Shown here: piece after piece, positions 539 to 63,167 of the stretch
Position numbering within the stretch: the first letter of the stretch is position 1
Layout of the letters: every line of letters begins with the position of its first letter
Assembly: GCA_039621445.1 (NCBI GenBank)
Contig: CP154954.1
Coordinates: forward strand, 33,581,455 to 33,645,454
Reading direction: 5' to 3'
Length of the DNA stretch: 64,000 bases
DNA from: Euglena gracilis
Taxonomy: Eukaryota
Notes under the pieces: generated by a model
What the model saw: the letters and a program-made list of their open reading frames with translations, nothing else
Databases searched by the model: none
What the model was told of the DNA's origin: nothing
Position numbers and translations under genes: made by a program

Positions 539-3100
539 GTGAAGGACCCCTATCCCTGCGACCTAGCACCCGGCCCCATTGCGGACGACCAACTTGCACT
601 ATGGCCTCAGGGCCTTCTAAGTTGTCAAATGTGGCCCCAGGGCACGCCAACCACGTACGGCAACCGATTAACCAGGAAAACGCGGTATGGGTACAGTCCC
701 CCCTGGTGTGGCAGGGGCAAAAGCCTTGCCAGTTGTGGCGACATTGAAAGCAACCCAGGTCCCACAGAAACCCGCCCTCCCCAGCAGGAGGACGTTGAAA
801 TGGCCTCAGCCGCACAGACCTCTGCTGTGGCTGACGGAGCTACCGCTCCTTGGATCTTGGTTTCCAATGCACTCGACGCCGCTGTTCTCGCCTACTTTGT
901 CCCAAGCTATAATGCCGTTTCCCAGTTTGAACGGGGGCCCCGGGGCACCCGCAGCTGAACAAATCATGGTCATTGACGAACTAGAGTCCCGGGTGCGCTC
1001 AGCGATTTCCGAAATTCACGGGTGTGCGCCGCAGGGCCAGGGGATGATTGAGAATTTTGTGCCGTCCTCACCACAAGGGCAAGAGCAACAGTGCCAAAAT
1101 GGTCGAAGGCCGCAGCACCCCGTGGCTGTAGCACCAGCGCAATCCTCGACGAACGCTGATACGCTGCAAGTCACTCCCTTCTCGCAACCTTGCCCACCAC
1201 TGCAGCCATCTTGGGAAGAAATTTCCCAAGACACGCGGGGCACGTTGGTCCATATCCCACGGGGAGCGTTGCGAAACGTTGGGCTCGCCTTTTGCAGCAC
1301 CCTCAGTCGCTTTGTATCAAAACCAGGATGGGAAACCCTACACACACTTTGGTGCTTCCCAAAAGCTGTGCTTGCTCCACTGAAGCGGAGCGGGAAAAGC
1401 CATTGGGCTGCAGTTGGACAGAAAATTACTGAGAGAGCCAATGCCTACCTCAACCGGTTCACAGAAGATTCGTGGGATGAGACTCGCCAAATTCGCGATG
1501 CACAAAACCCAAAGAAGAGAACACGAAGTCAGACAAAAAATTTCGATGCAGAAAGCCAAGAAAGATTGTGCAACCGTGTTCAAAGCCTTGTCAGCCATGG
1601 GGCGGTCAGTAAAGCCTGCCGCATGCCAACTTCTGATGGAATCCAAGATGCAGATGACCCGCTAATCTTGGAACGGTTGGCTGCCTTGCACCCTCCTGAA
1701 CCCCAACCTGGAAGGCAAAATCTGCCTCCGGACTTCCCTCGCCTCGAATTCGATCTCAGTGAAGATGCAACCAGGGAGCGCCTAATTGAAATACGGAAAG
1801 CAGTCATGTCTTTCCCGAAGGAGTCCTCACCAGGACCGTCTGGACTTCGTCCAGATCATCTTAAAGACGTACTCTCTGATCCCCTGGGGACACAATCAGA
1901 ACAACTCCTCACAATTTTGGACCAATTCGTCCGAACATGTTTGACAAACGGAATTCACAACTCTGCGGCATGGGTTTTCGCTGGTGCCCGTTTGACTCCT
2001 CTTCGAAAACCCTGCAATCCAAGCGAAAACCTTGATGAGCTTGGCAATACCAACCCCATTTCTGACCCAAAGAAGGATGGCACGCGACCAATTGCAGCTG
2101 GGGAATGCCTGCGCCGATTGGTGGACAAATATTTGATGAGGCACCCCAAAATCAGGGACCTCCTTAAAGAACTGCAGCCACTACAATGCGGTGTAGGGGT
2201 CCAGGGGGCATGTGAACTCATTGCTATGGGACTGCAGCAAGACGTGAATCACCTGCACATGCAACAGGACAACACCTGGGCTTTGTTACAGGTAGATTTC
2301 AGCAATGCTTTTAATTGCGTGAAAAGAAAGACAGTCGTTGCTGAAGTGGCTAAACGCTGCCCGGAGGCGTACGTTTGGTTCGAGAGTTGCTACGTCGAAC
2401 ACAGCCCGCTCTTTTGTGGGTCATCACACCTTCGGAGTGCCTCTGGCGTACAACAAGGGGACCCTTGTGGCCCAGCCGGATTCGCCTTGGCGTTGCAATC
2501 TCTCGTCGAGTCCTTGCAAGACGTGGTGCCACTCCAATTGTGGTATTTGGATGATGGACACATCCTGGGAACCCTCCCACAATTACATGCAGCAATTACA
2601 GAAATTCAACGACAGGGGACGCTACTAGGCATACACCTCAACGCAAAAAAATGCCGCCTGTGGGGCCCTGCAGCAACAGAAGCCAATCGTGCTGAAATGC
2701 CGCAAAACAGCCCACTTCGTGCAGTCCCAATCGTGAACTACTCCCCTAATTCTGGTATACGGGCCCTGGGAATCCCGGTATGCCATCCACAAAGCGGAGG
2801 CTTTGCGGGGGAAGTGTGGGCTGAACGTGCAACAGGTGTGCAGAAAGCTTGCCGGGCCCTTTTGAACCTGCCTCAAGCCCATATTCAGTTCTGCCTCTTA
2901 CGAACCTGCCTAGATGCTTGCAAAGTTAATGACCTCCTGCGTGCAACAGAACTGGGGCAGGCAAATGACGCATGTGCTCTGTTGACCAAAGAAATCAGGA
3001 ACACAATGAGCAACATTGTTGGATCCCCAATCGATGACAACCAATGGGCTCAGGCCACCCTACCCGTGCGTCATGGCGGACTCGGAAATCGGGACCCATC
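539..3100 (+). pseudogene. Leader-2A-RT polyprotein of element A; frameshift at ~900-960; endonuclease lost
   Basis: The 2A lies in ORF 539-958 and the RT in ORF 687-3455, a different frame. RT-like sequence ends at GGLGNRDP (~3100). Confidence 0.8.
710..763 (+). other. 2A-like StopGo peptide GRGKSLASCGDIESNPG|P
   Basis: Exact D(V/I)ExNPGP consensus with T2A-like upstream context. Confidence 0.85.
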
Positions 3101-3219
3101 ACCATTCGGGACCCATTCAGAGTCAGTGAAGCCACCTCTGCGTACCATGTTGGGGGTCGGGGAGGACCCCGCTCGCCCGGGGGGGCTGCCGGGGCCGCAA
3201 CCACTTTTTTCTGGCCCTG

Positions 3220-3552
3220 TGTTTACGTTGGTCGTCACCACCCGCCGTTGGACGGCCACCGGGCAGCTCATACTGCTTGCCGTGGCACGCCCTCAGGCGG
3301 GGAACTACACCCAAGGTCCGGCCAACCAGTGTCTCGTCCTTGGGCGCAGTTACACGCGCCGGTCGATCCCCGCGGTATGCCCTCTGCCCGTACGGGATCG
3401 ACCAGGACTCACACGGCGGGACCTGGGTCTCGAACCCACGACCTCCCGCGTGTGAGCCCAGCACCTTACCGAATAAGCTACTCGAGCGATACTCGGCTTG
3501 GTACTACGCGCCGGCTACCAACCTCTGTAGGATCTCCCGTCTGCCGCACACA
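3220..3552 (-). repeat. TRIM 3' LTR
   Basis: Apparently identical to 3910-4242 (offset 690); TG...CA termini. Confidence 0.95.
3415..3487 (-). ncRNA. tRNA-Val(CAC)-like sequence / internal Pol III promoter in the TRIM LTR
   Basis: Minus strand reads GCTCGAG-TAGCTTATTCGGTAAG (A box)-...-CTCACAC-GCGGGAGGTC-GTGGGTTCGAGACCCAG (B box/T arm). Acceptor and anticodon stems are degenerate. Confidence 0.75.
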
Positions 3553-9796: not shown

Positions 9797-12700
9797 GTAC
9801 CTTTGAATTCAGGTGTTGAGTGGGAGAAAGAATGTGGAAATGAATGCCTTGATTTCCTTGGATAATTGAATTGTCCTTTTTGATCTTTCAATTTTCAATT
9901 GACTTTTGTGCTTTTGTGATTCTCAATTCGAATTCTCAAATTCTTGCTGGAATTTGCTGGTGTTCCAATTCCACTCGCGTGGCGGTTGACTTGCTTTGGA
10001 TATTCCTACTGGGGTTTTTGGGAATTTTCTGGGAAATTTTTGGCTGCCGACGCCAGCGGCAGCCGACACCCCCTCCCTTGCGACGTTAGTCGGACCCGTT
10101 TTTCTGCCCCCCCCCCCCGAACAAAAACGGGGAGAGTGAAAATGATTTTTTTTGTGGGGGGCGAAAATTCTGTTTTTTTTTTGAAACGGGTCCTGTCGCT
10201 TTTTTTTTGAAAATGTGTGTTACGAGTCGGACCCCCCCCCCAGCCATAATATCGGGCACCTTGGGGGACTCTGAAAAATCAGGTCTGCGAGGGAAGCCCC
10301 CCACCCCTTTCCTCCGACAAGCATGGGGAAACGGGTCTTTGAACACAAATCTGAAAAACGATTCCAAACGAAACAAACTCTGGGCACTCCACCCCAAGGC
10401 CTAAGTCCCACGCTGCCCCCCTTGGTGAAAATCCTTTTTGGCAGCTTTCATTGTGTGAGACTTCATTTGTCGATTTTTTTAAAAAAAAAATCAGGGACTT
10501 TGGCCAACAGCGCCTCAGAAAATGACTTGTGTGGGGAAAAGAAAAAGAGAAACCTAGGCATTCCTTTCCAATTCGGGACAGTTGGGTAAGAAAAAGGCAA
10601 ATGGTAAGCAAAAGTGAAAAGTGAGAGGGTAAGCGGTCATATGGAATAGTGTACAATGGGTGTGCGGGTTCGTGTGCGTGTGCGGTTGTGTGTTTTGTGT
10701 GTATGCACGCTCACTTCCTTGTCATGCATTCCAACCGAAAATGACTGGGCTGACTTTTTTGAACGCAAAGATAACAGGGCTTCACATTGGCCCACAGCCA
10801 CTATATCACAGGGCTTTAGTGCCCACGTGGCTGGTTTTTTTTTTCATTGGCCCACAACAGGGCCTATGGACGGAGGAGGGGTCATCTCCGGTCCAGGGTC
10901 CCCCCCCCCCGAGTTCGGATGCCTCCAAGCTGTGTTCCATGTAAAATGCCTTTGACCAATATCCATTATCCAAACCGAATCAAAAAAACTGAGTTCTAAA
11001 GCTCCAACTCGTCTTGTCGTCCACCAGAAAAATTATTAAAATCCCAGGCTTTTTCCAACTCTTTGTGTAAAAATCCTCCAGCAACAAAAATCATCAAAAA
11101 AATCAAAAATCTGGGTCCAACACAGGGCCTACAAAAGCCCTCAACAAAATCCAATACAGAATTCCAACCTCTGACATCCAGCTGAGAACAACCAACCCAA
11201 ACAAAAGCATCCAGCAGCATACCGTTGTTGAGGGGCCAGGCCATCCGGCCCAGCTGTGGGTCCAACCGATTCACTGGAGCCGTAAAACCAACAAATCCGG
11301 CTTGCCAATTTAAATTCACTGCCCCCCCCCCCCCAATCACACGGGGCAATGGGGGTCAAATGACATGGCAAACTCAAAAATACTGAAAATTCAAATCCAA
11401 TTTTCTCAGCCAAAGCGATTTTTAGCTGCCCCCCCCCCCAGTCACATGGGGCCATGGGGGTCAATCTGGCTTCAGCCTCCAAACAAAAAATCACAAACCT
11501 GGGCCGTAATATCCAAACCGACTGAAATCTCACACATGTCAAAGGACGGGCCTTCACAATGTCGCCCCCCCCCCCCCACCGTCAACCAATGTGGGGAGGG
11601 CCATGGGTTAAAAATTCCTGGCTGCAAAATCAGAATCCCCATTCGACAAATAAAATGGGAAAAATGGAAATTTCATCAAACCCCGTCACATCTGGGGTGT
11701 GACCAAAACAATCACGGTCACAATATGATGCATTCCTGTCCCCACCCAAACGTCTCACAGGGGTATCCAATTCTGAGTCAAAAAATTCCAACCGTAAAGC
11801 CAAAACTGATTTTGATCCACCACACCAACAAAAAACAGGGCTCAACACAGCCCCCCCCCCAGCTGCACGAGGAGGGAGAAAAAATGGCTCCAAACCACAT
11901 GCAAAATCCTGAGACCCAAAAACATGAAAAATCTGATTCAGCGCTGTGGGAGCAGCCAACCTGGCCTGGACCTGGGCTTTGGCCGTGCATCGGGCCACTG
12001 CCCACTGCAGGCTCTTGAGGTCGTTAAGCTTCTCTCCCCAGCACTTCAGTAAAATAAATGTACCCACCATTCTGGGATTCCATAAACGATCCACAATTGT
12101 AATCATGCCAATCGTAATCATGTGATTCAATTGCTTGGGTCCCATTGATGTCATTGAAATCGGTTCTCATCTCATCGAAATGTTCATCCCAGTCTTTGAA
12201 GTCAATTCTTTGCAAACTGTTGAAGTCTTTGAATTCAATAAATTCAGTCAAAATCCTTGATAACTTAACTGCTTTGCTCCTTCATTTCGTGATTGCTGCT
12301 TGAACCTGCATGACAAGGCACACACACACGCACAAAATTCACCACTGGCAACACAGAAGGCAGATTTCTGAATTTTCTCACTGAACCGAACCTGAAAATG
12401 CCACTGAACTCTGAACCAAAACGGCACTTAAAATCTGTATCTTGATCCATCAAATGGGTCACACGAAAACTGTATAAGCAAGTCTCAAACTGCAAAAATT
12501 ACCATTGGGAGTTTTGCATTGTGAGGCGTCCCCCACTTCTGAGTTTTTCTCCCTCAAGCAAACTCCACAGCCGAAAAAATGCCGCAGAAAGTGTTACCCA
12601 CAGATCAACAGATTTTTCACTGAAAAACTGAACTGAATGCCACTGATGATGCCACTGCTGGGCCCAAAAATGAATTTTCCTCAGGGGTGTCTTTTCCTCC

Positions 12701-13540
12701 TGGGGTTAATCCACCTTGGTTCCCAAGACTGAAAAACTGAAAACTGTTTCCTGAGCCCTTAGATGGATGGCCACAGGGGTGTTTATTCCTGGCCTGGGTC
12801 TAGCCCCACCCTCGGAACCCCTCTTTGCGCGCTTTCCAAAAAACTTTTTGGTTCGAGTGGTCCATTAGAGGTCTCCCCTGCCTCAGGATTTGGCAAAAAC
12901 CCAGATAAAACCTGCCACAGGACTGCTGGGCTGCCACACTCGAAAACCACAATAAAAGTGGACTGAAAAATACCAAAAAACTGTGCGGATTCTCCAACAT
13001 ATGTCCCTGTCCGGGGGTAAGTTTCTCTCTGGAAAAACTGTCCCGTGACAAAAGGGACCAGCAAAAACACAAACCAAAATTCCAACCTGAAATGTCTGAT
13101 TTGTCCCCGTCGGGGATGGTGACACATTTCAATGCCGTGCCCCACCCCAAATGACATTTGGGACAAGAACCGAAAACTGAAAACTCTGAAACTGAAACTG
13201 AAAGATCATTGATCTGGCTGCCTGGACACTAGGAGAAATTCCCAAGCATCGTGGCTGGGCGTCTCCATTTAAGTGGAAAGCAACTGGGGAAAAACATGCA
13301 CCCCAGAAACCAGATTCAAAATGTTTGTCTTGGCTGTTTTTCCATAAGCCAAACTCTGTAAACTGAAAATCCAGATTTAAACTTCTGGCTGATTACGCAT
13401 CTGCCTCCAACACCAGGTCACCATGAAAAACGTATCACAAAACAATCACAAAGCCACAAGCAAACCACAAAAACATACTGATCTGTAAACTGCTGTGCGG
13501 TGCCAGTCAGTGGTTAGACCTGTGAAAAGACCTCAAAAAA

Positions 13541-14941
13541 TCACCACCACCATTGATGCGGTGGAAACCACCCCCAGCTGTTCCAGGGATTTAAATGCCA
13601 GTCCCAACCCCACCAATCTTGAAACCAACTTGGTCTCAAAAACTGAAAGTCGGTCCAAATGCTTTTGGCAGGCCTCCAGAATTTTTTTGTCTGTCTGAAT
13701 TTTCTTGGCTGTGCGGCAAAATCTGAGGAAGATTTCTCAGAAGACACTGATGACGGCTGCAAATTTATGACATGTCCAGAAGTCAGGTTCACAGGCACAA
13801 AGTTTTCTGGACTTGGAAATTTTTCACTGGGCTGTAACCTTTCAGTGATTTCAAACATTTTCAGCCGTTCCTCCAGAATCTTTTCTTCACTCTCCAGCCG
13901 TTTTGACAGAGCCTCGCCCTTCTCACACAGGGACTGGATGCTTTCAGAAAAACGGTGTTCAATTTCACTGCAAGTTCGTGTCAAAAGGTCATGAAAACCA
14001 TCTGCCAAATTTCTCAGACGGGTTTCAATTTCAGCCATCCGTCCTTCCAAGTGGCTGGACTCACTTTGGCTGGGCACTTCCTCCAGTTTCGTCAGCCTCT
14101 CGTTCAGAGAAAAAGTGTTTGAAAACAATTCTGTGATACCTGCCTCAACTTTTTGCCACCACTCATCCCAAGGGTCATAAAAAGTTTCAGGTTTTGTGAC
14201 CTCTGAAGTTTCCACACTGTCTGATTTGACACTCAGCTGTCCGGATTCAGATTCACACCGCACAACTCTCATTTGCAAAACATTTGGACAAGGGTCAAAA
14301 CTTTCTTGTTTAACTTCAGGTTCTCCTGGCAGTGAGCTTGTTGGGCTTACCCCTGACGGTTTACAAGATTGACATGGAGAAGATGAGTCAGGGCCATGAG
14401 AATGTCCAATGGCTGCTTCACATCTGAGTTTCCAAAACTCCCTCTGAGACGCCAGAAGTTCAGCCTCCCTTTTTCTTTGTTCCTCTGTTTGGGTATCACT
14501 CAATTCAATTCCCAACAATTTGAATTGGTCACTGTATTCCTTGAATTCTTTGTCATCAACAGAATCTAAAAATTCTTCACTGACAGAGTCAGTGAAGCCA
14601 CCTCTGCGTACCATGTTGGGGGTCTTGGGGGACCCTGCTCGCCCGGGGGGGCTGCTGCTTTCGCTGGGGCCACAATTTCCCTTTTCTGGCCCTGGTGGGC
14701 TCAGGCCAGGGCCTTTGGCAAGTTGGGCCCCGTTTTCAAATAAATCCACAGGCGGTAATGGGGGTGAGGTGTGCCCCCCCGACCCAGGTCCCCCTGTCTC
14801 CCCGCGTAGGATCGTTTTTAGCCTCCACTGTTTTGCCTTTTCAAACATTTGGATCAAAAGGTGAGCAAGGACAAAACCAACCCACCTACTTAGGATCAAA
14901 CAGCAGAGCACAACAAACCTGGGGCTTGAGAGGGTGGGCAA
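13541..14941 (-). CDS. Hypothetical coiled-coil protein with Trp-rich C-terminus, encoded by the tandem unit (start uncertain)
   Basis: 466-codon open frame with heptad-like segments (LNERLTKLEE, MAEIETRLRNLA, LSKRLESEEKILEERLK). Counterpart present in all four units. Confidence 0.55.
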   Translation of the reverse strand: MPTLSSPRFVVLCCLILSRWVGFVLAHLLIQMFEKAKQWRLKTILRGETGGPGSGGHTSPPLPPVDLFENGAQLAKGPGLSPPGPEKGNCGPSESSSPPGRAGSPKTPNMVRRGGFTDSVSEEFLDSVDDKEFKEYSDQFKLLGIELSDTQTEEQRKREAELLASQREFWKLRCEAAIGHSHGPDSSSPCQSCKPSGVSPTSSLPGEPEVKQESFDPCPNVLQMRVVRCESESGQLSVKSDSVETSEVTKPETFYDPWDEWWQKVEAGITELFSNTFSLNERLTKLEEVPSQSESSHLEGRMAEIETRLRNLADGFHDLLTRTCSEIEHRFSESIQSLCEKGEALSKRLESEEKILEERLKMFEITERLQPSEKFPSPENFVPVNLTSGHVINLQPSSVSSEKSSSDFAAQPRKFRQTKKFWRPAKSIWTDFQFLRPSWFQDWWGWDWHLNPWNSWGWFPPHQWWW

Positions 14942-15280
14942 GTACCTTTGAATTCAGGTGTTGAGTGGGAGAAAGAATGTGGAAATGAATGCCTTGATTT
15001 CCTTGGATAATTGAATTGTCCTTTTTGATCTTTCAATTTTCAATTGACTTTTGTGCTTTTGTGATTCTCAATTCGAATTCTCAAATTCTTGCTGGAATTT
15101 GCTGGTGTTCCAATTCCACTCGCGTGGCGGTTGACTTGCTTTGGATATTCCTACTGGGGTTTTTGGGAATTTTCTGGGAAATTTTTGGCTGCCGACGCCA
15201 GCGGCAGCCGACAACTCTCACCCGCACAGGACTTCGGCCTAACCCAGCACACCAGAGTAATCCAAAAAAAAAAATAAGGC

Positions 15281-16260
15281 GGCAAGGCGCAAGGGCGCAA
15301 ACCAGAAGGGCCCGGCGAGGAGGTCCGAGGGAAACGGAGTATTGCGTCCCTGAGGAGCTCCTTCCACCGCACCTGTTTACCATCCGGGGATGCAACTCCT
15401 GCAGTTTGACCCAGACAGCCGGATCGGAAGAGCGGTGGGTTCCTTCGAACAAGAGAACTTGCAGGGCCTTCGCAGGGGCCCCTTCCCCCACCAACGTGCG
15501 GGCACGGCGGAGAACAGCGGCCGGTATGGCGGCGGGCTCGGTGCGTGCTCTTTTGGCTGCCCGCGTCTCGATGGACGCTGGTGGGAGACGGGTGGCGTTT
15601 CTCAGCTCTGTCATCAGCGTTCCATTGTCCCCTTGCCGGAACAGTTGGACGCGCCGCCTGATCGCGGTGGAGATGTCCTCATCGGCCTCACGCCCCGCAC
15701 TTTGGACTGTCCGAAGCAGTTTGGGGAAGGCGAGGGTGGCGAACAGGCTGTCCATGGTTGGCCTGCTGACGTATTCCTCTATGACATTGGAGAGGGTCTC
15801 GGACACGTCACGTTGGTTGGCCGCAGGCACATGAAGGATCGTGTTTGCGCGGCAGAGGAAGACCTCCTGGAGGTTGGCCGGCTGGGGCGGGATGGTGATT
15901 CCGGGCGGGCCACCGTGACGGAGGTCAGAGTTCTTTCCGCTTTGGTCGACCACCACAGCCGCGGGTGTGTCGTCAGCTGGGTGTGCTAAATCGTTTTGTG
16001 CTGTCACGAGGCGCCTCCGCGGACACGACAACCGACGTGGCTGACCTCTTTCTGCCTCCCGGCGGACCTGGGTTGCTTTCAATGTCCCCGCAGTACAAGA
16101 GGCTCCCTCGGCCCGTCTTGGCGGGCGCTCGGCAATAGGGGAGTTGTCCATTAGGTTGATCATAATGTGGTCCACGGTGCACCGGGGAGTCACGGCAGGT
16201 AAGCGCGATTCCCCTTCGGCGATTGGTTGGGAAAGCCCTCCTACACACCGGCGCCGCCAA
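15281..16260 (-). mobile_element. Inverted 5' part of CRE element B (2A, N-terminal region, up to SSPGPSGLRP)
   Basis: Minus-strand frames give GRGSLLYCGDIESNPGP, LAFPKLLR, RARTLVGEGAPAKALQVL and FPRTSSPGPSGLRP. Confidence 0.85.
16063..16113 (-). other. 2A-like peptide GRGSLLYCGDIESNPG|P
   Basis: 14/17 identical to Thosea asigna T2A GRGSLLTCGDVEENPGP. Confidence 0.9.
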
Positions 16261-16267
16261 GGACTAA

Positions 16268-18190
16268 GTGGGCCGGCTGAGTCCCCTGCAGGTAGGGGTT
16301 GGGGTCCCCAATGCGTCCGAATCCGTCGCCATGGCAACCCAAAGTCTGGTCCGGAAACTGGATCCGCAGGGGAACTGGGCCATTCTTCAGGTGGACCTGA
16401 AGAACGCCTTCAACACACCGGACAGAAATGTCCTTCTACAAGAAGCGCAAACGCGCACTCCAGCGCTTTTCAACTACCTGCGCTTCGCCTACGGCCAGCC
16501 GGCACCGTTGTTCAGCGGAGGACGCGTGCTCCACTCCACGAGAGGCACACACCAGGGTTGCCCCCTGGGACCCCCTGGCTTTGCAGTGGGCCTCCACACC
16601 ATCAGCGAGACCATCAGCCAGCAAGCAGAGTTGCTCTGGTCCTCATGGTACCTGGATGATGGGGTGCTTGTCGGTGAGCCCTGGGCTTTGCAGAAGTGCC
16701 TCGAGTTCCTGCGGACCGAAGGCGCACGCAACGGGGTCCAATTGAACCCGGCGAAATGCGTCGTATGGGGTCCGGCTGCTGGCGCACTCCCTGACCGCGA
16801 GAAGGTTCAAGTTGTACCCTGGGTCGAGGGCTCTGGGATCACTGTCCTGGGCTGCCCCGTCGACTTCCCAACCACGGCAGGGCACACAGTGGCAGCATGG
16901 ACGGAGGCAACAACCAAGCTGGAACAGGCTGCGGACCTAGTCACCTCGGTCACTGACCCCCAGCTGGCGCACCACATCCTGAGGTCTTGACTGGACGGCT
17001 GCAGAGTTAACCACCTCCTGCGCGCCTCTGATCCCTACCAGGCGCAGGGTGAAGTGATTCGGTGCAGTGAGACGATCTTCGGTGCCTTTAAGGACATCAT
17101 CGGCCAAGCCCTCAGCACAGACCACCGCCTGCAGGCCTCGCTACCGCTGTCACAAGGTGGGTGTGGCCTTCGTATTCCCGCCTCCCACCAAGCAGCAGCC
17201 CGTACCGCCGCCCTGTGCCAGTTCTACACACATGGACATAAGCGGGTCGCATGTCCAAGCTACGCGGCCGCCCCGGACGACCGGCTCTGCCAGCAAGCCG
17301 CCAGTGACCTTGGCTCCGTCCTCGGCACCCGTCACCCTGAGAGCAACCGGCTGACAGCATCAGCAGCCTTCGCCTCTGCATCGGCAAATGACACCTCGCA
17401 GAAATGGTGGCAGACCCAACTATCCAAGGCCCATGTGGACGCCCTCATCGCCACGTGGTCTGCAAGGGACCAGACACGTCTTATGGAACAGCTCAACGGT
17501 ATCGGCCACGGCTGGATGGCAGCAGCCCCCAATGAGGCTCTGCACACGGTGATTGAGCCCACCGACTACTGCCTTGGCCTAAAGTGGTGGCTTGGGCTGC
17601 CCCTGGCTGACACGCCAACCACGTGCGCGGGGTGCCATTCTGTGGCAGACATCCACGGGGATCACGACATGTGCTGCATTCGGAACAACTTTGCAAGCCG
17701 ACACAACGCCGTTCAGGAAGCCTTATTCAACCTCCTTTCCGCGAACGGCCAGAGTGTCCAACGCGAGGTGCCAGTACCAAACCAGCCAGACGCCTCCCTG
17801 CGACCAGCGGACCTGTTGCTGGCAACATGGCAAGACGGGAAACCGACCGCGGTAGACATCGCGGTTGCACACGGCTGGCAGTCTGCTGAGAGGACAGCGT
17901 CCAGGGAACGATGGAGAACCTTCCTCAAACGGAAGGAGACCGCAAAGCACGCCAAGTACTACATATTGTGCCGAAACGGGGGCTGGTCCTTTGCCACGCT
18001 GGCATTTGGGACATGGGGAGGCCTGGGCCCGGAGAGCGCCAAGCTGCTGACAAGACTGATCGAACGATCGACCTCCTGGGATCAAGGCGACGTGCGTTTG
18101 ACGCGGCAGGCTGAGAGCTACCAGAGCTTGGCATTGGCCCTGTTCAAGCAGATCACTCAGTTGCTACGACCGAAGCATGTGCTTCGCTGA
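16268..18190 (+). pseudogene. RT plus restriction-like endonuclease of CRE element B; in-frame TGA at 16988
   Basis: QVDLKNAFN, GTHQGCPLGP, WYLDDG, CAGC..HDMCC, RHNAVQ, RPADLL, AVDIAV, KHAKY. ORFs 16268 and 17054 share one frame. Confidence 0.9.
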
Positions 18191-18717
18191 TTCACTGTCT
18201 AACATCTGACAGCGATACCAGCAACACGGACCTCGACCCGGCTGACCCCGGCTGGCCACTACACGTCTCCACCGGCGGCTCATCTACCTCCGACAAAAGA
18301 TCAGGACAAGGCACGACGCAGATGGCCGCCCAAAGGGCGAGGCCATCGGCGCAAACGATACACAAAGGCATTCATCCGCTACCGGCATTCCCGGCACAGA
18401 GGGCGCACCAAGACAGCCTACGAAGCAGCCACTGCTCCCAGAACACGGACAATACGGTTCAACGCTACAGGCACAAGCCTCTACTGCCGCTGCCCGCGGG
18501 CACCTTAACCTCCCTGCCATTCAACCACCTCCTCACCCACTTTCTCCCACGCCCCGCGAACCTCCTCACCCTGTCATCCCCTTGCGCTTTATACTTTATA
18601 ATGAAGATGGGCTTTGCCCGTTTTCCACCCGCTGAGCCCTGCGACAGTCGATACCTCTGCCTATCCATGGGGTTCCCCCTTCTGTCCATAGCCCCTGTCT
18701 CCCCGGAACACTCAAAT

Positions 18718-18761
18718 CCAGTAGGCTGTGCCACTGGTCGGTGGATTCGGTTCGCCCCACC
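18718..18761 (+). other. Conserved 3'-terminal double hairpin (element B)
   Basis: CCAGT-A-GGC-TGT-GCC-ACTGG-TC-GGTGG-ATTC-GG-TTCG-CC-CCACC; recurs at nine places in the window. Confidence 0.8.
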
Positions 18762-21700
18762 ACAGTATTTTTGTCTCATGTGGAAAAAAAACGACGACTT
18801 GCAGCCTTCTTCTCACTGGAGAAGGACACGGTGGTGGGGCGAGCCGAGTCCACCGACTAGTGGCACAGCCTACTGGATTTGAGTGCTCAGGGGGAGGGCT
18901 ATATACAGAAGCGGAAGCAGCAGTCTGTCAGAGGTAGAGGTACAGGAGAAGGCGTGTAAAGCCGAGCGGTCTTGGTAGCAGCGGAGACGGAGGGACGAGG
19001 GGAAACTTGGCGGATGAGGTGCGTTGGGGGTGAGAGGCGGAGGGCGTGGTGGCTGGTGTGTGTGTGTGTGTGTGTGTTTTGTGTGTGCTTGCGGTTTTTT
19101 TTTTGGAGGGATGGGATGTGAGATTGGTAGGTCATCTTTGCTCAATCCATTGCATATGGGCTATGGGTGGTGGGATCCACCTCTCCAGATGGCTCCGCCA
19201 CCGCACCCCATGCCAGCTGGCGGGCCACTTCTCTTGCCAATGTGAGACTCAGGGTTTGCCAGACGGAGGCTTTAGATGAGCGTCGTTGAAAAAACATCTG
19301 TTTGAGCCAATACAGTGCGGAGGCATTTGGTGATGAAGGTTGCAGCCTGCTCCCCCACGCCCCCAAAGCAGTCCAGCACGAATGGGATGAACGAACGAAC
19401 GAACAAATGAATGAATGAACGTCCACCCAAGGCGTTCACAGGTGGCTGCGTATTTGCGGCATTTTTTGGCTTCCTGTAATTCGTGCCACCGTGCTACGGC
19501 TTCTTTTGTGGAGACCGGATTGGCTGGCTGGAGCGGGTGACGCACCGTGACATCCACTGCTGCGGGTCCGTCAGCATCGTCCCTGGTAATGAAGACATCG
19601 CCGAGCCTTGTCTGGTTGTCTGCCACCTCTTCTCTTCGGGCCATGAATCCCGCTTTCCTTGCAAGCTCCACGACAAACGTTTGAAGGGCACCATGTCGCC
19701 GCAAAGTGTTGTTTTTTGGGCAGCAGACAAGGCGATTTCCGCCAAAGTCCATTTGCTGGTGGCAACGAGGGCATTCTGGCAAGGAACCATCTGGCATTGT
19801 CGGGCAAATTGCACACCCTAGAGACCATTGCGTCAGCGCTCTGAATTCGGCTGGTGGAATGAGTGTTTTCAGTGGAGCAGAGGGATTAACCGCAGCCCAG
19901 GCCATGGCGTGTGGCTTCCGCTGGCAGGTAAAACGGACTGCGTCGTTTCCTGCAAAGCTGCCCAAAAGTAGGTCAGCCCGTACTTTTACGACCTCATATG
20001 TCCAAAACTTCTGTCTCGTCATTGTGGGGGACAAGGAGCTCACTTTGCTTGGGTCCGCAAGGATGTCAGTGAGAGGTGCCAACCCTTTGTTGAGACTCGA
20101 AATTAGCAAGCCCGTCTCGCCATGGTCACGTGGAAGCTGAGGGCAGCCTTCCGGTTGGCCCAGAGTGCTGTGGGAGAGGAAACCCAGGATAGCTGCCCAT
20201 CTGGCCGGTGTTCTGGCTGCTTCTGGGTCTCGGATCCCCAGTCCTCCCAAGCGGACAGGAAGTGAGGCCTGTGCCCATTGTTTGTCGTCCATTGGGCGGG
20301 CGGTGATGACCGACATTGTGTCCCGTAGGATGCTGGAGGAGGAATGGCACTGTATTTTAGCACCCGAGAGGCGCGTGGTTCGCAGCAAATCATTCACTTT
20401 GCAGGCATCAAGGCATTGCCTGAGCACAGTGAATTGTAGATGCGGTGACGGCACCAATTGTAACAGGTGGCACGCCTTCTGGACACCGGTGAGGCGCTCC
20501 TCCCAAAGGAGGGAGGCAAATTCAGGCGTTCCACCCGGGTGGCAAACAGGCGCGCCGAGTGCGCGAATGCCGGTGCCGGCTGTGAAAGGCTCGACCGGGA
20601 TGCCCTGAAGGATGCCTTCTCCGTGCTCCACAAAGGCTGGACCACACAGTCTGCATTTCGCCAAGTTGAGACCTACACCAATCCGTGGTCCCTCAGATAC
20701 AATCAACCAAACTGCCCTCTCAAGCTGCTCCGGTGTGCCCATGACGTGGGCATCATCCAGGTACCAGGCTTGCCAGCCCACGATGCCTTGCAGTTTGTCC
20801 AGCAATGGCTGTATCCCGAGGGCAAATGCGGCCGGCCCGCACGGGTCCCCTTGCTGCACACCAGACTTGCTTCGGAGGGATGTCTTTCCCAGATACAACC
20901 GAGAATGGCGTGCGTAGCAGCTCTCCAACCACGGCAGCAGGGAGGGGACATCTATCGGCGACCTCGGCCAGTAAGTTCTCTCTTGATATGCAATTGAATG
21001 CATTTGAGAAATCCAGCTGGAGTAACCCCCAGTCAACCTTCCCGATATGGGACAGGCCGTCAACTATCTGCTGAATGCCCATGCTTATCAATGCGCATGC
21101 GTCCGGTACACCTACCCCCAGCTGTTGTGGCAAGGCGGTAGCCAGGGAGCGGCGGACTTCTGTGTGGCGCATTAGCACTTTTGCCACCAGGCGTCGGAGG
21201 GTTTCCCCGGCAGCAATGGGCCGTGTGCCTTCCTCTTCAGGGGATGTTTTGTTTACGGGGTCGGTGGGTGCGCCGGTCCCTGTTTTTGTTTTGCGGAGTG
21301 GCGTGAGGCGATCCGCACATAGCACTTGCGCTGGTCCATCAGGGATTCCCTTCATTACACAACCGAAGACAAATTCTGTCAACTCGTCCAGGAGGTCTTC
21401 TGCAAAGCTGCCAGCTTCATCACTGAGGAGGGACTTCAGATGTTCAGGACGCAGTCCTGAAGGGCCTGCGGATGATTCAGGGCCGAAGCGCCGTACTGCC
21501 TGTTTCACCATGCGGCGGTCATCTGCCAAGTCCTCGCAGCGAGAGGGTGGTTTTAACCTTGTGGGAGGGCCCCTTCCTGGTTCTTTCTCTGTTGGGTGCA
21601 TTCGGCGTAATCTCTCCCGCACAACGGGATGAGCCGCATCCTGGACTCCTTCGGAGAGAAGTAACTGGCATGCCTTGCCCACGGCTCCTCTCGCCACCGG

Positions 21701-22332
21701 CGTCTCCATCCGACGGATAAACCAATCTGTTAGTTTGCGGAGGATCGGGTGGATACCGAGGAGGCTGGATTTACGGCCGGCTTTTTCGAATTCTGCCAGG
21801 AGACGGCGGCCGGCTGTGTAAGGTAGGCTCGTGCCCTCGTACTGATGGTCCTTCCCAACTGAGCCCAGTGATTCCTGCCAGCGCGTGGCAAGGGTGCCAG
21901 CACTGCCTTGGGCATGCACCAGAGTGCGTGTGAGGACTCCCATGAAGGGTGTCTGTTGTAGTCCTTCAGAAGAGAGGAGTAGAGTTGGGAGACCGCCTGT
22001 ACGGCGCCACGAGGGATGTGTGAGACCGTGCCCCTGAGGTCCTGTGCGATGCCATCCCAGGTTGGTTCGAGCGTCGGACAGCGTTGTGAGAAGGGGGTCC
22101 CAGGCGTTCTGCAGCCCGGCAGAAATGGCTGGGGTGGGCCATCTGTTTCCATGGCTGCCGTCGCTGCTGTAACCTGGACAGTCGTGGGCGCGGCAAGGGC
22201 AGGCAATGGGTCATCCAATTCAATGGCCACCAATAATTCCGGGTCCAGGTTGGTCCCACTTTCAGTCGGCCGTGAAAGAGCAGCATCCTGCCTTCGTGTT
22301 TGGCGGCCTCTCTCCGTTGGCTACCCTGTGCG

Positions 22333-22386
22333 TGGGCCAGGGTTTTCTTCAACGTCGCCACACGACAGTAGCCCGCCTCTTCCCCG
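22333..22386 (-). other. 2A-like peptide RGRGGLLSCGDVEENPG|P
   Basis: 15/18 identical to T2A EGRGSLLTCGDVEENPGP. In frame with the downstream element ORF (21730-22233) across a single TAG. Confidence 0.92.
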
Positions 22387-22429
22387 TAGGTGGAAACCCC
22401 ACGCTATTACGGCTGGAATTGTGCTGAGC

Positions 22430-22989
22430 CCTGGGGCAAAATTTGACGGCATTACGGCCTTGGGCCCTGGAGCCACATCTGTGAAACACTTTTCCGTGCC
22501 CGTTTTGGCTTGAGACGTGTTGAGCCCTGGGGCCAAATTTGACAGCATCATGGCTGAAGCCTTGGGCCCTGGGGCCACATCTGTGAAAAACTTTTCTGTG
22601 CCAGTTTTGGCTTGAAATGTGTTGGCTGAAGCCTTGGGCCCTGGGGCAACATCTCTGAAAAACTTTTCTGTGCCAGATTTAGTTGGAAAAGTGTTGAGCC
22701 CTGTGGCAAAATTTGACAGCATCATGGCAAAAGCCTTGGGCCCTGGGGCCACATCTGTGAAAAACTTTTCTGTGCCAGTTTTGGCTTGAAATGTGTTGAG
22801 CCTTGGGGCAAAATTGGACAGCATCATGGCTGAGGCCTTGGTCCCTGGGGCAAGATCTCTGAAAAATTTTTCTGTGCCAGATTTGGTTTGAAATGTGTTG
22901 AGCCCTGGGGCAGAATCTGGGAGCATCATGGCAAAAGTCTGGGGCCCTGGGACCACCTCTCTGAAATGTTTAGAAGGCCCTGGGGCCAT
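22430..22989 (-). repeat. Coding minisatellite, 102-nt/34-aa unit (DVAPGPKASAMMLSNFAPGLNTFQAKTGTEKFFT), ~5.5 copies
   Basis: ccctgg anchors at 22465, 22567, 22639, 22741, 22843 and 22945 (spacing 102/72/102/102/102). Confidence 0.9.
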
Positions 22990-23293
22990 AGTGCAAATTG
23001 GAACAGTGATCGCTATGTTACAGCACAGATGGTAGAGCAAAGTACAGTGAAACAGGGATAGTACTTCCAGCCAACCCAGGGACCACTGGACCAGGGCCTG
23101 TAATTCCCTGGGGGGCATGAGGGTTCTTGCGCTGGCTGAAGGCATCACCGATGCCCAAGCCATTGCATGGGGCTTCATTTGACATGTCAGTTTGAGCTTT
23201 TCTGCTCCAGAGAGATAATTGTGTACCCTTTGATGAAACCTTTACTCAGAACGTCGTCGTAAAAAGTCGTCGAAAAGTCGTAGGAATTCGTCG

Positions 23294-23318
23294 CTTTCTG
23301 ACTGTCTATGTTTTTTCG
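23294..23318 (+). other. Euglenid spliced-leader-like exon relic CTTTCTGACTGTCTATGTTTTTTCG
   Basis: 23/25 match to the Euglena-type SL CTTTCTGAGTGTCTATTTTTTTTCG as recalled from memory. Confidence 0.65.
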
Positions 23319-24429
23319 TTCGCATATCATGTCGGACAACTGAAAGCCGGACCATCAGGATGCCCAAGGTGCCACAATCCCCTGGATCTCGTCCGTTGTC
23401 ACCGACACAATATTGTTCGGCGACACGGGGCGGTACAATCCTACCTCTTGGGGCTTGCTCAAAAGGCTGTGTTCTTAGCGAGACGAGAGGGAGCTGCCCC
23501 TGATGGTTCACGGCCCGGGGATGTCTTTGTCATGAGGTACGATGCCAATGGTCTAGCCGCAATCGACATGACGGTACGCCACCACTTAGCACCCTCCCGA
23601 ACACGACCTGGGACAGAGGACCTTGGCAGATGGCACGAATCAAAAGAGGAGGACAAAGTCAAGAAGTATGGTGCTGGCTGCCAACGAAGGGGTGGACGTT
23701 CATTCCCTTTGTCTTGGATTGCTATGAGGGCATGGGTGATGCGGCCCTTGCCTTCGTTGGCCAATGCGTACGTCTACTCATGGGGCAGCACGAATCGTGG
23801 GAGAGACGAGCAACGGAGGCCAACTGTTGGCAGGGCCTGAGCATGGCCCTGGCCAGGGAGCTGGCGAAGCAGCTTGCTTGGGGACAGTGCCCCGAGGAGC
23901 TGGCTGACGGTGGTGAAACAAGCCTTCATCAACCTTACTCTGTCCAGTAACGGGGAGGTGCAAGCATGCCGCCTACGTCAGCCCCTTAAGCCATGCGAAC
24001 CTTATGGCCAAAGCACCACGAACAAAGGCCCGTCGTGGCCACCTTCAATTACCCGCATTTTTCTACGCAGCTCTTCGGTGAGAGACTGCCCGATGACCGC
24101 CAAAGGCTTGGGAAAAGTTCCGCTCGGTACCTCCATCTCCGCCGCGTTGTAAACAAGGCGCGAGCTCCGTAGTGACGCATGATGACCCACGTGGCAGAGG
24201 ATTTTCAACCACAACCTGAGGACCTTGTGCCCGGCAGCTACTCCGGCTGTTGATCAATGGCTGCCCCACCTCGCACCCTTCTCTAAGCTCACATCTCTTC
24301 CCCTTTTCCCTCCCCTCCCATCTCCCGTCCCCAGCACAGACTGTCGCTTCTGTACATAGCCTTACCCCCTGAACACAAATCAAATCCAGTAGGCTGTGCC
24401 AGTGGTCTGTGGACTCAGTCCGCCCCACC
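23319..24429 (+). mobile_element. 5'-truncated CRE element D (RLE domain plus 3'UTR)
   Basis: CPRCH..RRHGAVQ, RPGDVFV, AIDMTV, KVKKYG, WTFIPFVLDC. Ends in the hairpin motif at 24386-24429. Confidence 0.88.
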
Positions 24430-24463
24430 ACCGCTTTGGCCAAAAATAGGCGGTTCCGAGTGT

Positions 24464-24486
24464 CTTTCTGACTGTCTATTCTTTCG
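24464..24486 (+). other. Spliced-leader-like relic CTTTCTGACTGTCTATTCTTTCG at the 5' end of element E
   Basis: Second independent SL-like copy, with a different upstream flank. Confidence 0.65.
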
Positions 24487-27400
24487 TGTCGCACAACTAC
24501 CATGTCTTGACTGCCCCTGGTGGGGTCCAAGCTCATTGAACATCTTCCCCATCTTGCAGATAACGTCGCCTGAAGCACAAGTATCAAGGAAAGGAAAGAA
24601 GTTCAAGTCGTCAACCAGAACATGAACACAGAGGAGGAGTCAATTGGTTGCCTGCGGAACAAGAGGCATCGCAGCGACAGTTCGGGTGTAAGCCACGACC
24701 CCGGTGTAGCACTTTTGGAGTTCGTAAGGGGCCAGGACGTGGTGAACCTCCGCTCCTCAGCGAGCAGCAGCACAGCCACCACCACCCCCAAGCCAAAGGC
24801 GCCATCAAGAAGAACACCCCCAAGGGGAGGGAAGGGGGCAGAAAGCAGGGAAACGCCACGGGTTCCCGTGGCACTCGGCCGCCACGTCGAAGGAAAGCAA
24901 GGGGATGATGCGGCGGCTAAGGACGATGAGGAAGAAGCAGAAGCAGAGGGACCACGAACCCTCATGTGTCCCTTTTCATCGTGCCCAGAAGCCCTCACCA
25001 CCAAGTCCCGCAAAGCATTGGTGTCGCACCTGGCCGCGCACCATGTGTCGCACGGCCAAGTGTTGCCGTCGGCAGTCCTCCAAATGCTGAGGGTACGGGT
25101 CTGCGCAGGCCCCTTCCGCTCACTCGTGCCCCAAAGCGAGAGATGCAGGAACTGCAAGGTGGCACCGCAAAGCCTCGACACCGCAGAGGCAACACGGGGC
25201 CCCGTGCCTCTCATCCCCCCGAGGGATGCAGCCGCGCCACAAACGGGAACACCAACCACAAGCCGATGCCCACAAATGACGCCCACGTTTGATGAGGTGC
25301 TCGTCGTGCATGTGCCCACAGTGAGACACATCCCAGCAATGTGTCGCACCGCCATCACCCAGGAGCTGGCACATCTAGTGAGGGATGTGGCAGTCCCAGT
25401 GCCAACATGGGAGGCGCTCCACCGTCTCATATGTTTCCCAAAGCTGGTCTTGCGTTAATCAGGCCGGGGTGGATGCAAGCACCAGCGGCACGCAGCACAT
25501 GACATGGACGGACGGCTGCGTCTCTTTCAGCAAGGCCAGTTGGGAACCTTGTGGGCCGAGGCGAAAAAAAAAACGCCCAAGCACGGCAGACCCCATTGGA
25601 CCAACCGGCGCGCACAAGGGCACAGGCCAAGCGGGAGGAGGAAGAGGAAATGTCACCATCACAGGTGGGGAAAATCAGGGCTTTGGTGGAGGAAGGCGCA
25701 CTGCCCAAGGCCGCTAAGCTGTTGGTGTCAGATGCGCTGGTCAACTTGCAGGAACCGGGTATGGAAGCCGTACTGAGGGACCTCCATCCCCCAGCACAGC
25801 CGCACTTGGTCCCGTCAGGGGATTTGCCCACCTCGATTGCCTGCCGCCTGGGGACGAGGGCATGCACGACGAGGAGAGCGACGAGCAGTGGTCCAAGCGG
25901 GCCTGGGCAGCCGTGGTCTCCTTCCCCCCGGGGTCTAAGTCCAATCCACCTCAGTGAGTGTTGCCGAAAGCTGGGGCCCGGGGGGGGGCCTGGTCCAAGC
26001 CCTTGGCAAGCTTGCTGCGACGGCCCTGACCACATCATTGCCGGAGAGCGTGCGAGAAGTACCATGCGCCTCCACGCTCATCCTGCTCCGCAAGAAGGAT
26101 GGGGGGGTGCGACCGATTGCCGTCGGTGACACCCTCCGGCGAGTGGTGGGCAAGTGCCTTCTCCATTCTGAAGCGGTGAGGATGTTGATGGCAGCCCTAC
26201 AACCGCGGCAGTGCGGGGTGGGAGTGCGAAACGCCGCCGAGATGGTGGGCATGGGCCTGCAACGCTCGTCCAGTCAAGCCACCTCCAAGGGGATAACGAC
26301 CACGTGGTGTTGCAGGTGGATATGTGCAATGCCTTCAACTTCATCAGCAGGGATGCAATGCTCCGGGGATGCTTGGCCAAGGTACACACGGCGTACAACT
26401 GGCTGCGCTTTTGCTACAGTGGACCAAGTCCGTTGTTCTGCCAAGGGCGCTTCCTGTGTACAAGCCAGATCGGAGTGCATCAAGGCGACGCATGCGGGCC
26501 CTTGGGATTTGCACTGGACTTGGACTACGCCCTTGACCAGTGCTTTGCCCGGGACTTGGCGCTTTGGCGGCGGCCACATCGTGGGGAAACCAGCAGTGGT
26601 GTTGGCCCGCCTCCATGACATCAGCACGGTCCTAGGCCTAGGCCTAGCCCTAGGCCTCCACCTCAATTTGGCCAAGTGCAATTTTTGGGGACCTGGGATG
26701 CAGAACAGTCTATCAAGCCGGGCCACATTACCCAGACGGTTTGGCAGAAGACCACTTGGGAAGACAAGTGCCCGTGATTCCTTTTGGAGGACAGAGGGGC
26801 ATCACGACCCTGGGCGTCCAGATTGATGCCCCGCGGGAGCATCACACAGCACAAGAGGACACGCCAAGAGCACCACAATGCCAAGCCGTATGGGAAGAGA
26901 CCGTGGACAGGGCGACCTTGCTCCTGTAACGGCTCAGGGGCCACCCAGAGGGGCAAGAGCGGCACGCACTCTTGCGGTACTGCCTTGACGGATGTCGGGT
27001 GGTCCACTTCCTCCGATCAACGGAGAGAGAAAACGCACGGGACTGCCCGCTCATTCTCAGGGCATGGCTGGAGGAAGCCGTACAAGATCTCCTCGGACTG
27101 GGAATCACCGAGAGTTCACGGGATCAAGTCTCCCTGCCCATCCGCCAAGGGGGACTCGGAATCTCGGACCCCGACGTGTTGCAACCCGCGGCACGGATGG
27201 CGGCCTTGTTGAACCTGGGCAAGCAGTGGGGGTGCCAGCCTCGGTGTTGGCAACCCCATCCCCGGAAATGCAAGACAGGCTACAACGGTTGCATCAACAG
27301 CTTGGCCCCAACGTGGATCCCGTGGCCAGCTGGCCCGCAGGCACCACCCCACTCTCTCCGCAGCACCAGAACACGCCTCCCAACGGTGGTGGGCGGAGAA

Positions 27401-28314
27401 AGTGGCGGAAATGCAGAGCCAGTGAGTCGACGCGGTCGGCTTTGCCAGGGACCGGCTGAGAAGGGCTTGCCAAAAGGGACCGGTGGAAACGGGATGGCTA
27501 CGGACTTTGCCCAGAAAGGCACAGCACACAGCTTTCTCGGACATCCAATACTGGCTGCTACTGCAGTGGTGGCTTGGCCTGTCCATCCTCCCTTCAGGGG
27601 TCACGCTGCAGGGGTGCCCACTGTGTCGAGGGTCCATTGACCCCTTCGGGGATCATTCGTCTGCTGCGAGCAGAATGGAAACACCGAACGGCACAATGCA
27701 TTCCGAGATGCTTTTGCAGCGATGTGTGCCCTGTACAACATTGCGGTGGAGAAGGAGGCAGAGTGTTTGGCGAACAACAGACCGGCCGATGTTCTCCTCA
27801 TCAACTGGTCACAGGGGCAACGAGGCCTTCGGACCTCTGCCAGGCGGTGCTGTTTGAGGTCACCAAAAGGGCCACCGCAGACATGCGGGGATGGCCAAAG
27901 ACAAGGGCCATGAAAGAAAAGCAGGAAGCACTATCGGTGACACTCATGCGCCACGTTGCGCGGCAGGTATCCGCCAAGGACCGCGTGGAGCAGGCCCTCC
28001 ACCCATGGTAAGTCCCCAACCCCCACCGCAGACAGCACCAAAAGCGCGCAAGACCAAGGCCAAGACGGCCACAACCCGCAAATCGCGGAGGTTCACCACG
28101 GAACCACCCCCCCAAAAGGCGCCCCCCCCCACAAAAAAAAACGAAGCCGCCAAAAAAAACAGAGCCCACACGCCAGGCGAAAGGTATCCGCCCAACGAGG
28201 CAACAAATGGGAGTGGAGCCGGCAAAAGCAACGCACACGCAAAGGGTAGCCCGCCCGCCCCGGACTCCACAAGGTGAGAAGAGAGTGCGCGCGCGACCCA
28301 GCAAGCCGGCTATA
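24487..28314 (+). mobile_element. Heavily decayed CRE element E (N-terminal C2H2 finger, RT, RLE); cut by the assembly gap
   Basis: CPFSSC...HLAAHH, CFPKLVLR, KKDGGVRPIAVGDTLRR, QVDMCNAFN, GVHQGDACGP, LPIRQGGLGI, CPLC, RPADVLL; many frameshifts. Confidence 0.88.
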
Positions 28315-28327
28315 NNNNNNNNNNNNN
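28315..28327. other. Assembly gap (13 N)
   Basis: N run. Confidence 1.
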
Positions 28328-42000: not shown

Positions 42001-42111
42001 ACAGTACTTTTGTCTCATGTGGAAAAAAAAAGACGACTTGCAGCCTTCTTCTCACTGGAGAAGGACACGGTGGTGGGGCGAGCCGAGTCCACCGACTAGT
42101 GGCACAGCCTA

Positions 42112-45212: not shown

Positions 45213-45266
45213 TGGGCCAGGGTTTTCTTCAACGTCGCCACACGACAGTAGCCCGCCTCTTCCCCG
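45213..45266 (-). other. 2A-like peptide RGRGGLLSCGDVEENPG|P (duplicate)
   Basis: Identical to 22333-22386. Confidence 0.9.
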
Positions 45267-47306: not shown

Positions 47307-47340
47307 ACCGCTTTGGCCAAAAATAGGCGGTTCCGAGTGT

Positions 47341-63140: not shown

Positions 63141-63167
63141 AGGATCATCCTCTCGGACTTTGAGCAT

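Follow-up and report, generated by a model that had tools for sequence, protein, structure and literature searches.

A retrotransposon copy in Euglena gracilis DNA carries, at its 5′ end, a coding sequence for an almost canonical viral 2A (StopGo) peptide. The copy, termed copy B, lies on the minus strand of a stretch of 64,000 nucleotides from contig CP154954.1 (the window, to which all coordinates refer). We consider it probable that copy B is a decayed representative of an abundant R2-like element, and that the ancestral leader of this element ended in a class-A 2A peptide in frame with the reverse transcriptase (RT) and endonuclease. The 2A signal in the window is a fossil, as is copy B itself, and the interest lies in the family-level pattern. 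The evidence for a 2A in an R2-like family comes from conservation of the motif across diverged lineages and from intact open reading frames (ORFs) in relatives.

A T2A-like sequence in copy B

Positions 22386..22333 of the minus strand encode RGRGGLLSCGDVEENPGP. This translation agrees at 15 of 18 residues with T2A, for which a table of PMC9980757 gives EGRGSLLTCGDVEENPGP; the first-pass annotation of the window had likewise described a near-perfect T2A at this place. The last nine residues are those of the Thosea asigna virus motif, for which PMC8623073 quotes ∼99% cleavage. The C-terminal residues DVEENPGP (22356..22333) conform to the class-A motif D(V/I)ExNPGP, and a leucine-containing context is present about 10 residues before this motif (GRGGLLSCGD).

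Directly after the 2A come the codons R-T-G (22332..22324) and an in-frame TAG (22323..22321; together 22321..22332, minus strand). Copy B therefore fails to read on from the proline within the same ORF, since the TAG stands four codons past the 2A. Beyond it the frame runs for 196 codons without a stop (22320..21733; PTERGRQTRR...LVAIELDDP...), and both the RTG-TAG and the stop-free continuation are as first reported. Reading on in the same ORF after the 2A is found in the relatives P0014, P0027 and P0028.

Copy B is a pseudogene

Copy B extends from approximately 22966 to 19060 (minus strand) and is a decayed copy, a pseudogene. Full-length relatives match it by tblastn from 22098 down to 19287. 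Upstream of the 2A are ∼5.3 tandem monomers of 102 bp (22421..22966, minus strand; period 102, 84-85% matches), which probably constitute the 5′ UTR or leader of the element. The 2A frame passes through this array (22387-22968, minus strand) with 0 stops in 194 codons, compared with 7 and 1 in the other frames. Nine in-frame ATGs occur within the monomers, and leaders of varying length could end at the 2A. An open frame of 306 codons upstream of the 2A was considered as a leader protein and rejected, because the upstream sequence consists of the monomers and then a fragment of another element.

A conserved N-terminal domain occupies 21733..22320 (minus strand) in the 2A frame, with 51% identity to residues 24-133 of P0005 (tblastn match 22098..21769). 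According to tblastn and frame analysis, the N-terminal half of the RT lies at 20945..21721 (minus strand; tblastn match 21712..20945) and is out of the 2A frame. The C-terminal half of the RT, a linker, a CCHC motif and a restriction-like endonuclease are back in that frame at 19417..20946 (minus strand; RVT_1 and tblastn). The earlier statement that the 2A frame continues into the RT region is thus correct for the N-terminal domain and incorrect for the first half of the RT, with the frame regained from the second half through the endonuclease. The copy finishes with a frameshifted C-terminal tail bearing a GTTC-type microsatellite and with a 3′ UTR, and it terminates in an A-run and (CA)n (19060..19416, minus strand). 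Self-comparison of the window reveals no direct repeats flanking copy B and no LTRs.

Besides the TAG, copy B has at least three frameshifts, at ∼21730, 20945 and 19400, and its endonuclease motifs are degraded, with GNR in place of the GDH of relatives and RLGD in place of RPxD. Given these lesions, copy B is not the clearest case of a leader-2A-RT-endonuclease element that it had been taken for; copy A, described below, needs only a single frameshift. The proposed architecture does exist uninterrupted in P0027 and P0028, where the 2A is in frame with the N-terminal domain, although in copy B itself it is broken.

The family to which copy B belongs is very abundant. From run X1 alone, 1591 contigs align to the stretch, which is covered at high depth up to 22420 in runs from many studies. 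Relative to copy B, family contigs from public runs have 16 extra bases at 21730-21732, and part of them lack one base at 20943. These +16 and −1 sites bound the out-of-frame segment, which points to an ancestor of copy B that most likely had 2A, RT and endonuclease in one frame. Among the public runs matched, none of those recorded as RNA contains the copy B stretch. Two runs guessed to be RNA, X17 and X19, yield 43 and 7 aligning contigs, which hardly cover the 2A, and are uninformative either way.

The TAG may be a private lesion of a dead copy, or it may be a feature of the subfamily. When family contigs are compared with the stretch, no difference at 22321-22323 appears among the 40 best-supported of 303 base differences. 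A protein search with the 2A and N-terminal stretch, the TAG being entered as X, gave one match, which begins downstream of the 2A, and no shorter protein matched region 1-75 of this query. Reassignment of TAG was rejected, as neither of two long ORFs in the window, that of copy A with 927 codons and a gag-like one with 1147, contains TAG, TAA or TGA.

Three independent 2A sites in the window

A six-frame scan of the window identified six occurrences of NPGP, five of which lie within a full D[VI]ExNPGP. From residue frequencies, D[VI]ExNPGP is expected ∼1.9e-4 times per six-frame translation of the window, and none arose in 200 first-order Markov simulations; bare NPGP is expected ∼2.4 times. 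A chance origin of the 2A motifs in the window is excluded. No decayed 2A motifs beyond the five were found by a looser pattern scan of the window.

The five observed motifs correspond to three independent sites. Self-comparison reveals a segmental duplication of ∼19 kb (9443-28314 and 32630-51185), the two units of which are 98.5-99.2% identical and parted by 13 Ns at 28315-28327. Either a genuine tandem duplication or an artefact of assembly may underlie it. Internal repeats are nested within it, for example 7152-10068 with 12273-15213. The duplicate of copy B, termed B2, has its 2A at 45213..45266 (minus strand), with letters identical to those of copy B including the RTG-TAG (45201-45212), and lacks the equivalent of 21233-21839 of copy B. 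Because B and B2 are one duplicated locus, B2 is not independent evidence, and the earlier emphasis on a TAG common to both duplicates carries no weight. The 2As at 16063 (copy C) and 39302 (copy C2) form a second pair derived from the segmental duplication. With two duplicate pairs among the five motifs, the independent 2A sites are those of A, B and C.

The 2A of copy A, GRGKSLASCGDIESNPGP, lies at 710..763 (plus strand), and that of copy C, GRGSLLYCGDIESNPGP, at 16063..16116 (minus strand; C2 at 39302-39355). Copy A is the least damaged of the copies. An open frame of 927 codons (672..3455, plus strand) spans its N-terminal domain and RT, in the +1 frame relative to its 2A. The frame of the 2A (533-958) overlaps this long frame at 672-958, where the overlap crosses a run of G and C at ∼925-940, and one base would join the two frames. 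The RT frame of copy C is likewise +1-shifted relative to its 2A. Thus, the path from 2A to RT is interrupted in all three window lineages, by the TAG in B and by a frame change in A and C. In each of them the 2A stands at the 5′ end, before a homologous N-terminal domain, and the nearest in-frame ATG precedes the putatively skipped bond by 39 codons in B and by 44 codons in A.

Protein identity is 47-53% between A and B and 23-35% between A and C/D. In cross-lineage pairs, the 13-codon core of the 2A differs synonymously at 4-8 codons and non-synonymously at 1-3, and the flanks cannot be aligned. A 20-nt motif, GTCAAATKTGGCCCCAGGGC, has 13 matches in the window against 0.05 expected. These sites are at 624-643, at six places in 22428-22819 and again in the duplicate, and they occur only upstream of the 2As of A and B. 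As A and B read it in different frames, this motif, which apart from the 2A is the sole element common to their leaders, is a nucleotide-level signal, and it might serve the element as a promoter or in the 5′ UTR.

Copy D, which runs from the RT through the endonuclease, is a member of the C subfamily (16214..18187, plus strand; 47% identity to residues 184-849 of P0011). Copy C (15283-16263, minus strand) and D derive from a single copy, of which C is the 5′ part, now inverted, and D the rest; the two face each other head-to-head. A second head-to-head pair of one subfamily is the inverted fragment of another element that lies beyond the monomers of copy B (23214-23020, minus strand, with 23319-23938, plus strand). 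In both pairs the two pieces have opposite orientations, the 5′ piece being the inverted one, and their protein coordinates overlap slightly or leave a small gap. Inverted 5′ pieces are a pattern that results from twin priming in L1. A fourth RT-endonuclease lineage, at 25189-27889 (plus strand; duplicate at 48066-50808) and 27-33% identical to P0005, has its 5′ end present and shows no 2A even with looser patterns.

The family resembles R2 and has a restriction-like endonuclease

The 927-codon ORF of copy A retrieves public proteins of ∼1000 amino acids that contain RVT_1 and bear the C-terminal motifs CPxC..GDH..C..RHN..RPxD..D-x-T. A profile built from ten family proteins and compared with solved structures matches R2 proteins best (9nl3_A and 9dou_A, E 3e-17), whereas LINE-1 ORF2p attains 8e-6 with the same profile. 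The R2 alignment covers the RT as well as the motifs C..C..H..C, RHN, PD and DVTV; this second stretch taken alone is weak (E 0.19), yet it agrees motif for motif. A single-sequence search of the PDB with P0005 returned no match. The RT of the family, recognized in Pfam as RVT_1, is of the non-LTR type and nearest to R2 by profile, and a search of the ESM Atlas returned only RVT_1 clusters.

No APE domain was matched in Pfam at E ≤ 0.01 among 12 proteins and fragments, and a scan with a nine-protein alignment revealed no relatives among viral contigs. Judged by these motifs and profiles, the predicted architecture of the family is that of a restriction-like-endonuclease non-LTR element, nearest to R2. 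Founding members of the CRE clade habitually insert into spliced-leader RNA genes. Insertion into such genes, a trait that bears on the CRE label given in the first-pass annotation, was not seen here, as no Rfam family reaches its gathering score in the window, and the 2A-bearing copies sit among other retroelements.

2A sites in public relatives

In the public protein P0014, GRGEALLSCGDVESNPGP is found in frame, before the N-terminal domain and RT. A second, decayed 2A (…CGDIEANPGW) occupies residues 1-12 of this protein and precedes the intact 2A by ∼110 residues. When P0014 was used to scan 1.84 billion representatives with HMMER, 8253 of them matched at E ≤ 0.001. A strict 2A is present in 16 of the best 150 of these 8253 representatives, namely in 15 of the 50 that reach the expected N-terminal position and in P0029, which starts inside the motif. 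The remaining 35 of these 50 informative representatives are without a 2A, and the motif is not universal in the family. Several of the 2A-bearing representatives carry two or three sites.

Two relatives, P0027 (1273 amino acids) and P0028 (1294 amino acids), are uninterrupted from leader and 2A through the N-terminal domain, RT (YLDD), CCHC..RH and RPAD. The block GRG..L..GD.E.NPGP, directly before the N-terminal domain, is invariant in eight aligned relatives. P0004-P0007, the public proteins nearest to A and B, start downstream of where a 2A would lie and are silent either way. A 2A was found in any frame in none of 80 more distant metagenome loci (24-42% identity), 45 of which reach the position. 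In P0044, P0071 and P0145, the 2As have the form W.RDL..DGD[VI]E.NPGP and join an N-terminal tryptophan, a feature described for ‘class B’ 2A (PMC12338488), with the class-A GD[VI]E core.

A FastTree phylogeny of the RT segment was calculated from 141 of 172 rows, after omission of rows with fewer than 170 aligned residues (including copy D) and of the long branches P0023 and P0024. Nine of the 11 2A-bearing rows fall in one clade of 52 rows (SH-like support 99). This clade includes A and B, which group with P0004-P0007, and has one informative row without a 2A. Among the other 86 rows of the tree, 19 are informative and lack a 2A, and two have one. A minimum of three changes of 2A state is needed on this tree. 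As the tree is rooted arbitrarily and FastTree gives local supports, we take it solely to mean that the 2A is concentrated in one clade. Carried by three diverged lineages of the window and by 16 of the 150 best public relatives, the 2A is a feature of the family.

Upstream modules and the Dam-like stretch

A Dam-like module (PF05869) is carried by P0027, P0028, P0034, P0046 and P0055. Overall, six of eight relatives match the Pfam Dam family, with E values of 2e-7 to 8e-4, four of them barely above the 28.1-bit cut-off, and the matches span profile positions 30-86 alone. The motif NPPF is invariant in the module. It also resembles the Dam-like stretch of an LTR-type element in the window (tblastn E ∼1e-8 to 1e-9). 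A profile of the Dam-like leader matched no PDB sequence. The AlphaFold2 model of P0073 has a mean pLDDT of 47.9, and Foldseek matched it to no structure at E ≤ 0.001; SAM-dependent methyltransferases make up most of the weak top rows, which are not counted as evidence. The assignment of the module as a putative methyltransferase is provisional. No Dam-like module is present in copies A, B and C.

In P0027, P0028, P0034, P0037, P0046 and P0055, a Dam-like module, one to three 2As and an R2-like RT-endonuclease occupy single ORFs. In P0034, a small Cys/His module lies between two 2A sites. The 2A sites of these relatives plausibly divide a polyprotein, releasing accessory modules from the RT-endonuclease.

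The LTR-type element of the window is Ty3-like and occupies 56894-64000 (plus strand). It comprises a gag-like ORF of 1147 codons containing CCHC knuckles, together with a protease-like stretch, a Dam-like module (61853-62155, plus strand) and an RT that has the motif YIDD. Similar DAM-LTR elements were reported from Euglena gracilis and a few other lineages in bioRxiv 10.64898/2026.05.21.726589, and this resemblance is compatible with the euglenid label of the first-pass annotation without being diagnostic of it. Minus-strand ORFs at 8390-9367 (325 codons) and 13541-14953 (470 codons), which are repeated, encode a coiled-coil-like protein with a Trp-rich tail. Their product resembles the N-terminal part of the gag-like ORF (56894-60337), and these ORFs are probably derived from a retroelement.

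A model for expression and its alternatives

Under the model we favor, the ancestral element would have had one long ORF encoding the N-terminal domain, RT, CCHC motif and restriction-like endonuclease. Its leader, short and poorly conserved, would have ended in a StopGo peptide read in one frame with the RT-endonuclease. The ribosome would translate the leader and then form no Gly-Pro bond at NPG|P, such that the leader is released and continued translation yields an RT-endonuclease protein with an N-terminal proline. In the A, B and C lineages the 2A would strip a variable leader from the RT-endonuclease. In related elements the 2A site, often accompanied by one or two more, would separate upstream modules, one of them Dam-like, from that protein. 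Peptide-bond skipping at the window 2As is predicted here from the canonical motif and from the activity of other predicted class-A peptides, 14 of 17 of which were active in PMC12338488.

A broader proposal is that an entire clade of R2-like elements expresses a StopGo polyprotein, in which one to three 2As release upstream modules such as a Dam-like adenine methyltransferase and a small zinc-finger piece. The 2A would then date back to the shared ancestor of the window lineages, in which just the last site is retained behind a monomeric 5′ region. We give this proposal an even chance. The multi-2A relatives would give the site a clear job, the separation of accessory proteins from the RT-endonuclease.

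Copies A, B and C have no Dam-like leader, and the 2A in these lineages could be a relic without present function, kept by descent after an upstream module (for example, the Dam-like one) was lost. The leaders of the three copies are short and not conserved as protein, the 20-nt motif being read in different frames in A and B, and all three copies are broken shortly after the 2A. Nonetheless, the amino acids of the 2A core are kept through mostly synonymous codon changes among lineages at 23-53% protein identity, which argues for selection while the lineages were active. The elements L1Tc and Ingi likewise retain an N-terminal 2A behind a short leader (PMC3708506), and we regard a functionless relic as unlikely. 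It is more doubtful still that the TAG is genuine in the B subfamily, which would make leader-2A-RTG-stop a regulatory upstream ORF acting through termination and reinitiation, with no StopGo read-on. An ATG does lie ∼58 codons downstream in the same frame, but copy A and all 16 of the 2A-bearing public proteins read on past NPGP, and copy B has other inactivating lesions. The occurrence of the TAG in both B and B2 reflects one duplicated locus. That no difference at 22321-22323 stands among the 40 best-supported of the 303 leaves the other 263, which may include the TAG position.

A programmed +1 frameshift after the 2A, rather than mutation, might connect 2A and RT in copies A and C, where the long RT frame, offset by +1 from that of the 2A, already spans the 2A without a stop. 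We consider this highly improbable: two copies agree on +1 by chance half of the time, the overlap in A spans the G/C run at ∼925-940, where a single-base indel or an assembly error is likely, and B and the public relatives are in frame. There is next to no chance that the 2A is foreign, whether as a laboratory T2A cassette or as a viral insertion in the assembly, despite the 15 of 18 residues that match T2A. Three retrotransposon lineages each bear a version of their own, with different codons, at the 5′ end, runs of many studies cover the stretch up to 22420 at high depth, relatives share the GRG..L..GD.E.NPGP block, and no vector or viral sequence was seen flanking the motif. The preferred reading is that of an R2-like element whose leader ended in an in-frame 2A.

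Comparison with known systems

Sequences similar to 2A are known at the N-termini of APE-type non-LTR elements, including L1Tc and Ingi of trypanosomes and members of the Rex1, CR1, L2 and Crack clades (Odon et al. 2013, PMC3708506). Leader stripping has been proposed for the 2As of L1Tc and Ingi (Luke et al. 2013, PMC3894237). As in L1Tc/Ingi-type elements, a class-A D(V/I)ExNPGP in the present family lies near the N-terminus of a single long RT ORF, after a short leader and with no separate ORF1. In contrast, the endonuclease of our family is C-terminal and of the CCHC plus restriction-like type, no N-terminal APE was found after the 2A, and relatives carry up to three 2A sites together with substantial upstream modules.

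In the available text of PMC3708506, PMC3894237 and bioRxiv 2026.06.17.732966, retrotransposon 2As are placed in APE-type elements, and clades with restriction-like endonucleases serve as background only. The text of PMC3708506 treats CRE, NeSL, R2 and Hero, as well as R4, in this manner, with no 2A reported in them. This part of the literature regards the restriction-like-endonuclease clades as the 2A-free ‘ancient’ form, and a canonical 2A in an R2-like family would give the mechanism a broader reach. If the broader proposal above is true, 2A recoding is not confined to ‘young’ APE-type non-LTR elements. In a literature search of main texts, no paper brought 2A together with restriction-like-endonuclease elements or Euglena retroelements, and the available text of recent 2A surveys, including bioRxiv 2026.06.17.732966, makes no mention of ‘Euglen’. 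Section 31 of bioRxiv 10.64898/2026.09.24.754024 describes 2A in 580 RT-bearing contigs, ∼79% of them ‘non-LTR-like’, with the endonuclease type unstated in that section. The supplements of that preprint may already contain this R2-like 2A family.

Family relatives share a Dam-like module with the DAM retrotransposons, which are of the DIRS and LTR types (bioRxiv 10.64898/2026.05.21.726589). Unlike in those elements, the module of the relatives shares its ORF with an R2-like RT-endonuclease, from which a 2A sets it off, and the 2A elements of the window are without the module. The same preprint describes Euglena DAM elements with RTs that branch among LINE-like RTs and treats them as possible chimeras; the words ‘skipping’ and ‘self-cleaving’ are absent from its available text. 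If the broader proposal above is true, the methyltransferase-bearing ‘LINE-like’ elements of Euglena would be real single-ORF elements and not chimeras.

R2 proteins (9nl3, 9dou and 8gh6) are the best matches of the family among solved structures, over the RT as well as CCHC..RHN..PD..D-V-T-V, and R2 and the family are both single-ORF elements. The family differs from R2 in that the similarity is distant (profile E 3e-17, no single-sequence match) and the window copies lie outside rDNA. We know of no 2A in R2, and our literature search found no papers that combine the two.

Finally, copy B shares with T2A the whole GDVEENPGP block, and the three substitutions among its 18 residues all fall in the N-terminal half. 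T2A acts in the polyprotein of an RNA virus, whereas the predicted 2A of copy B belongs to a cellular retrotransposon. The sites of this family add natural T2A-like variants.
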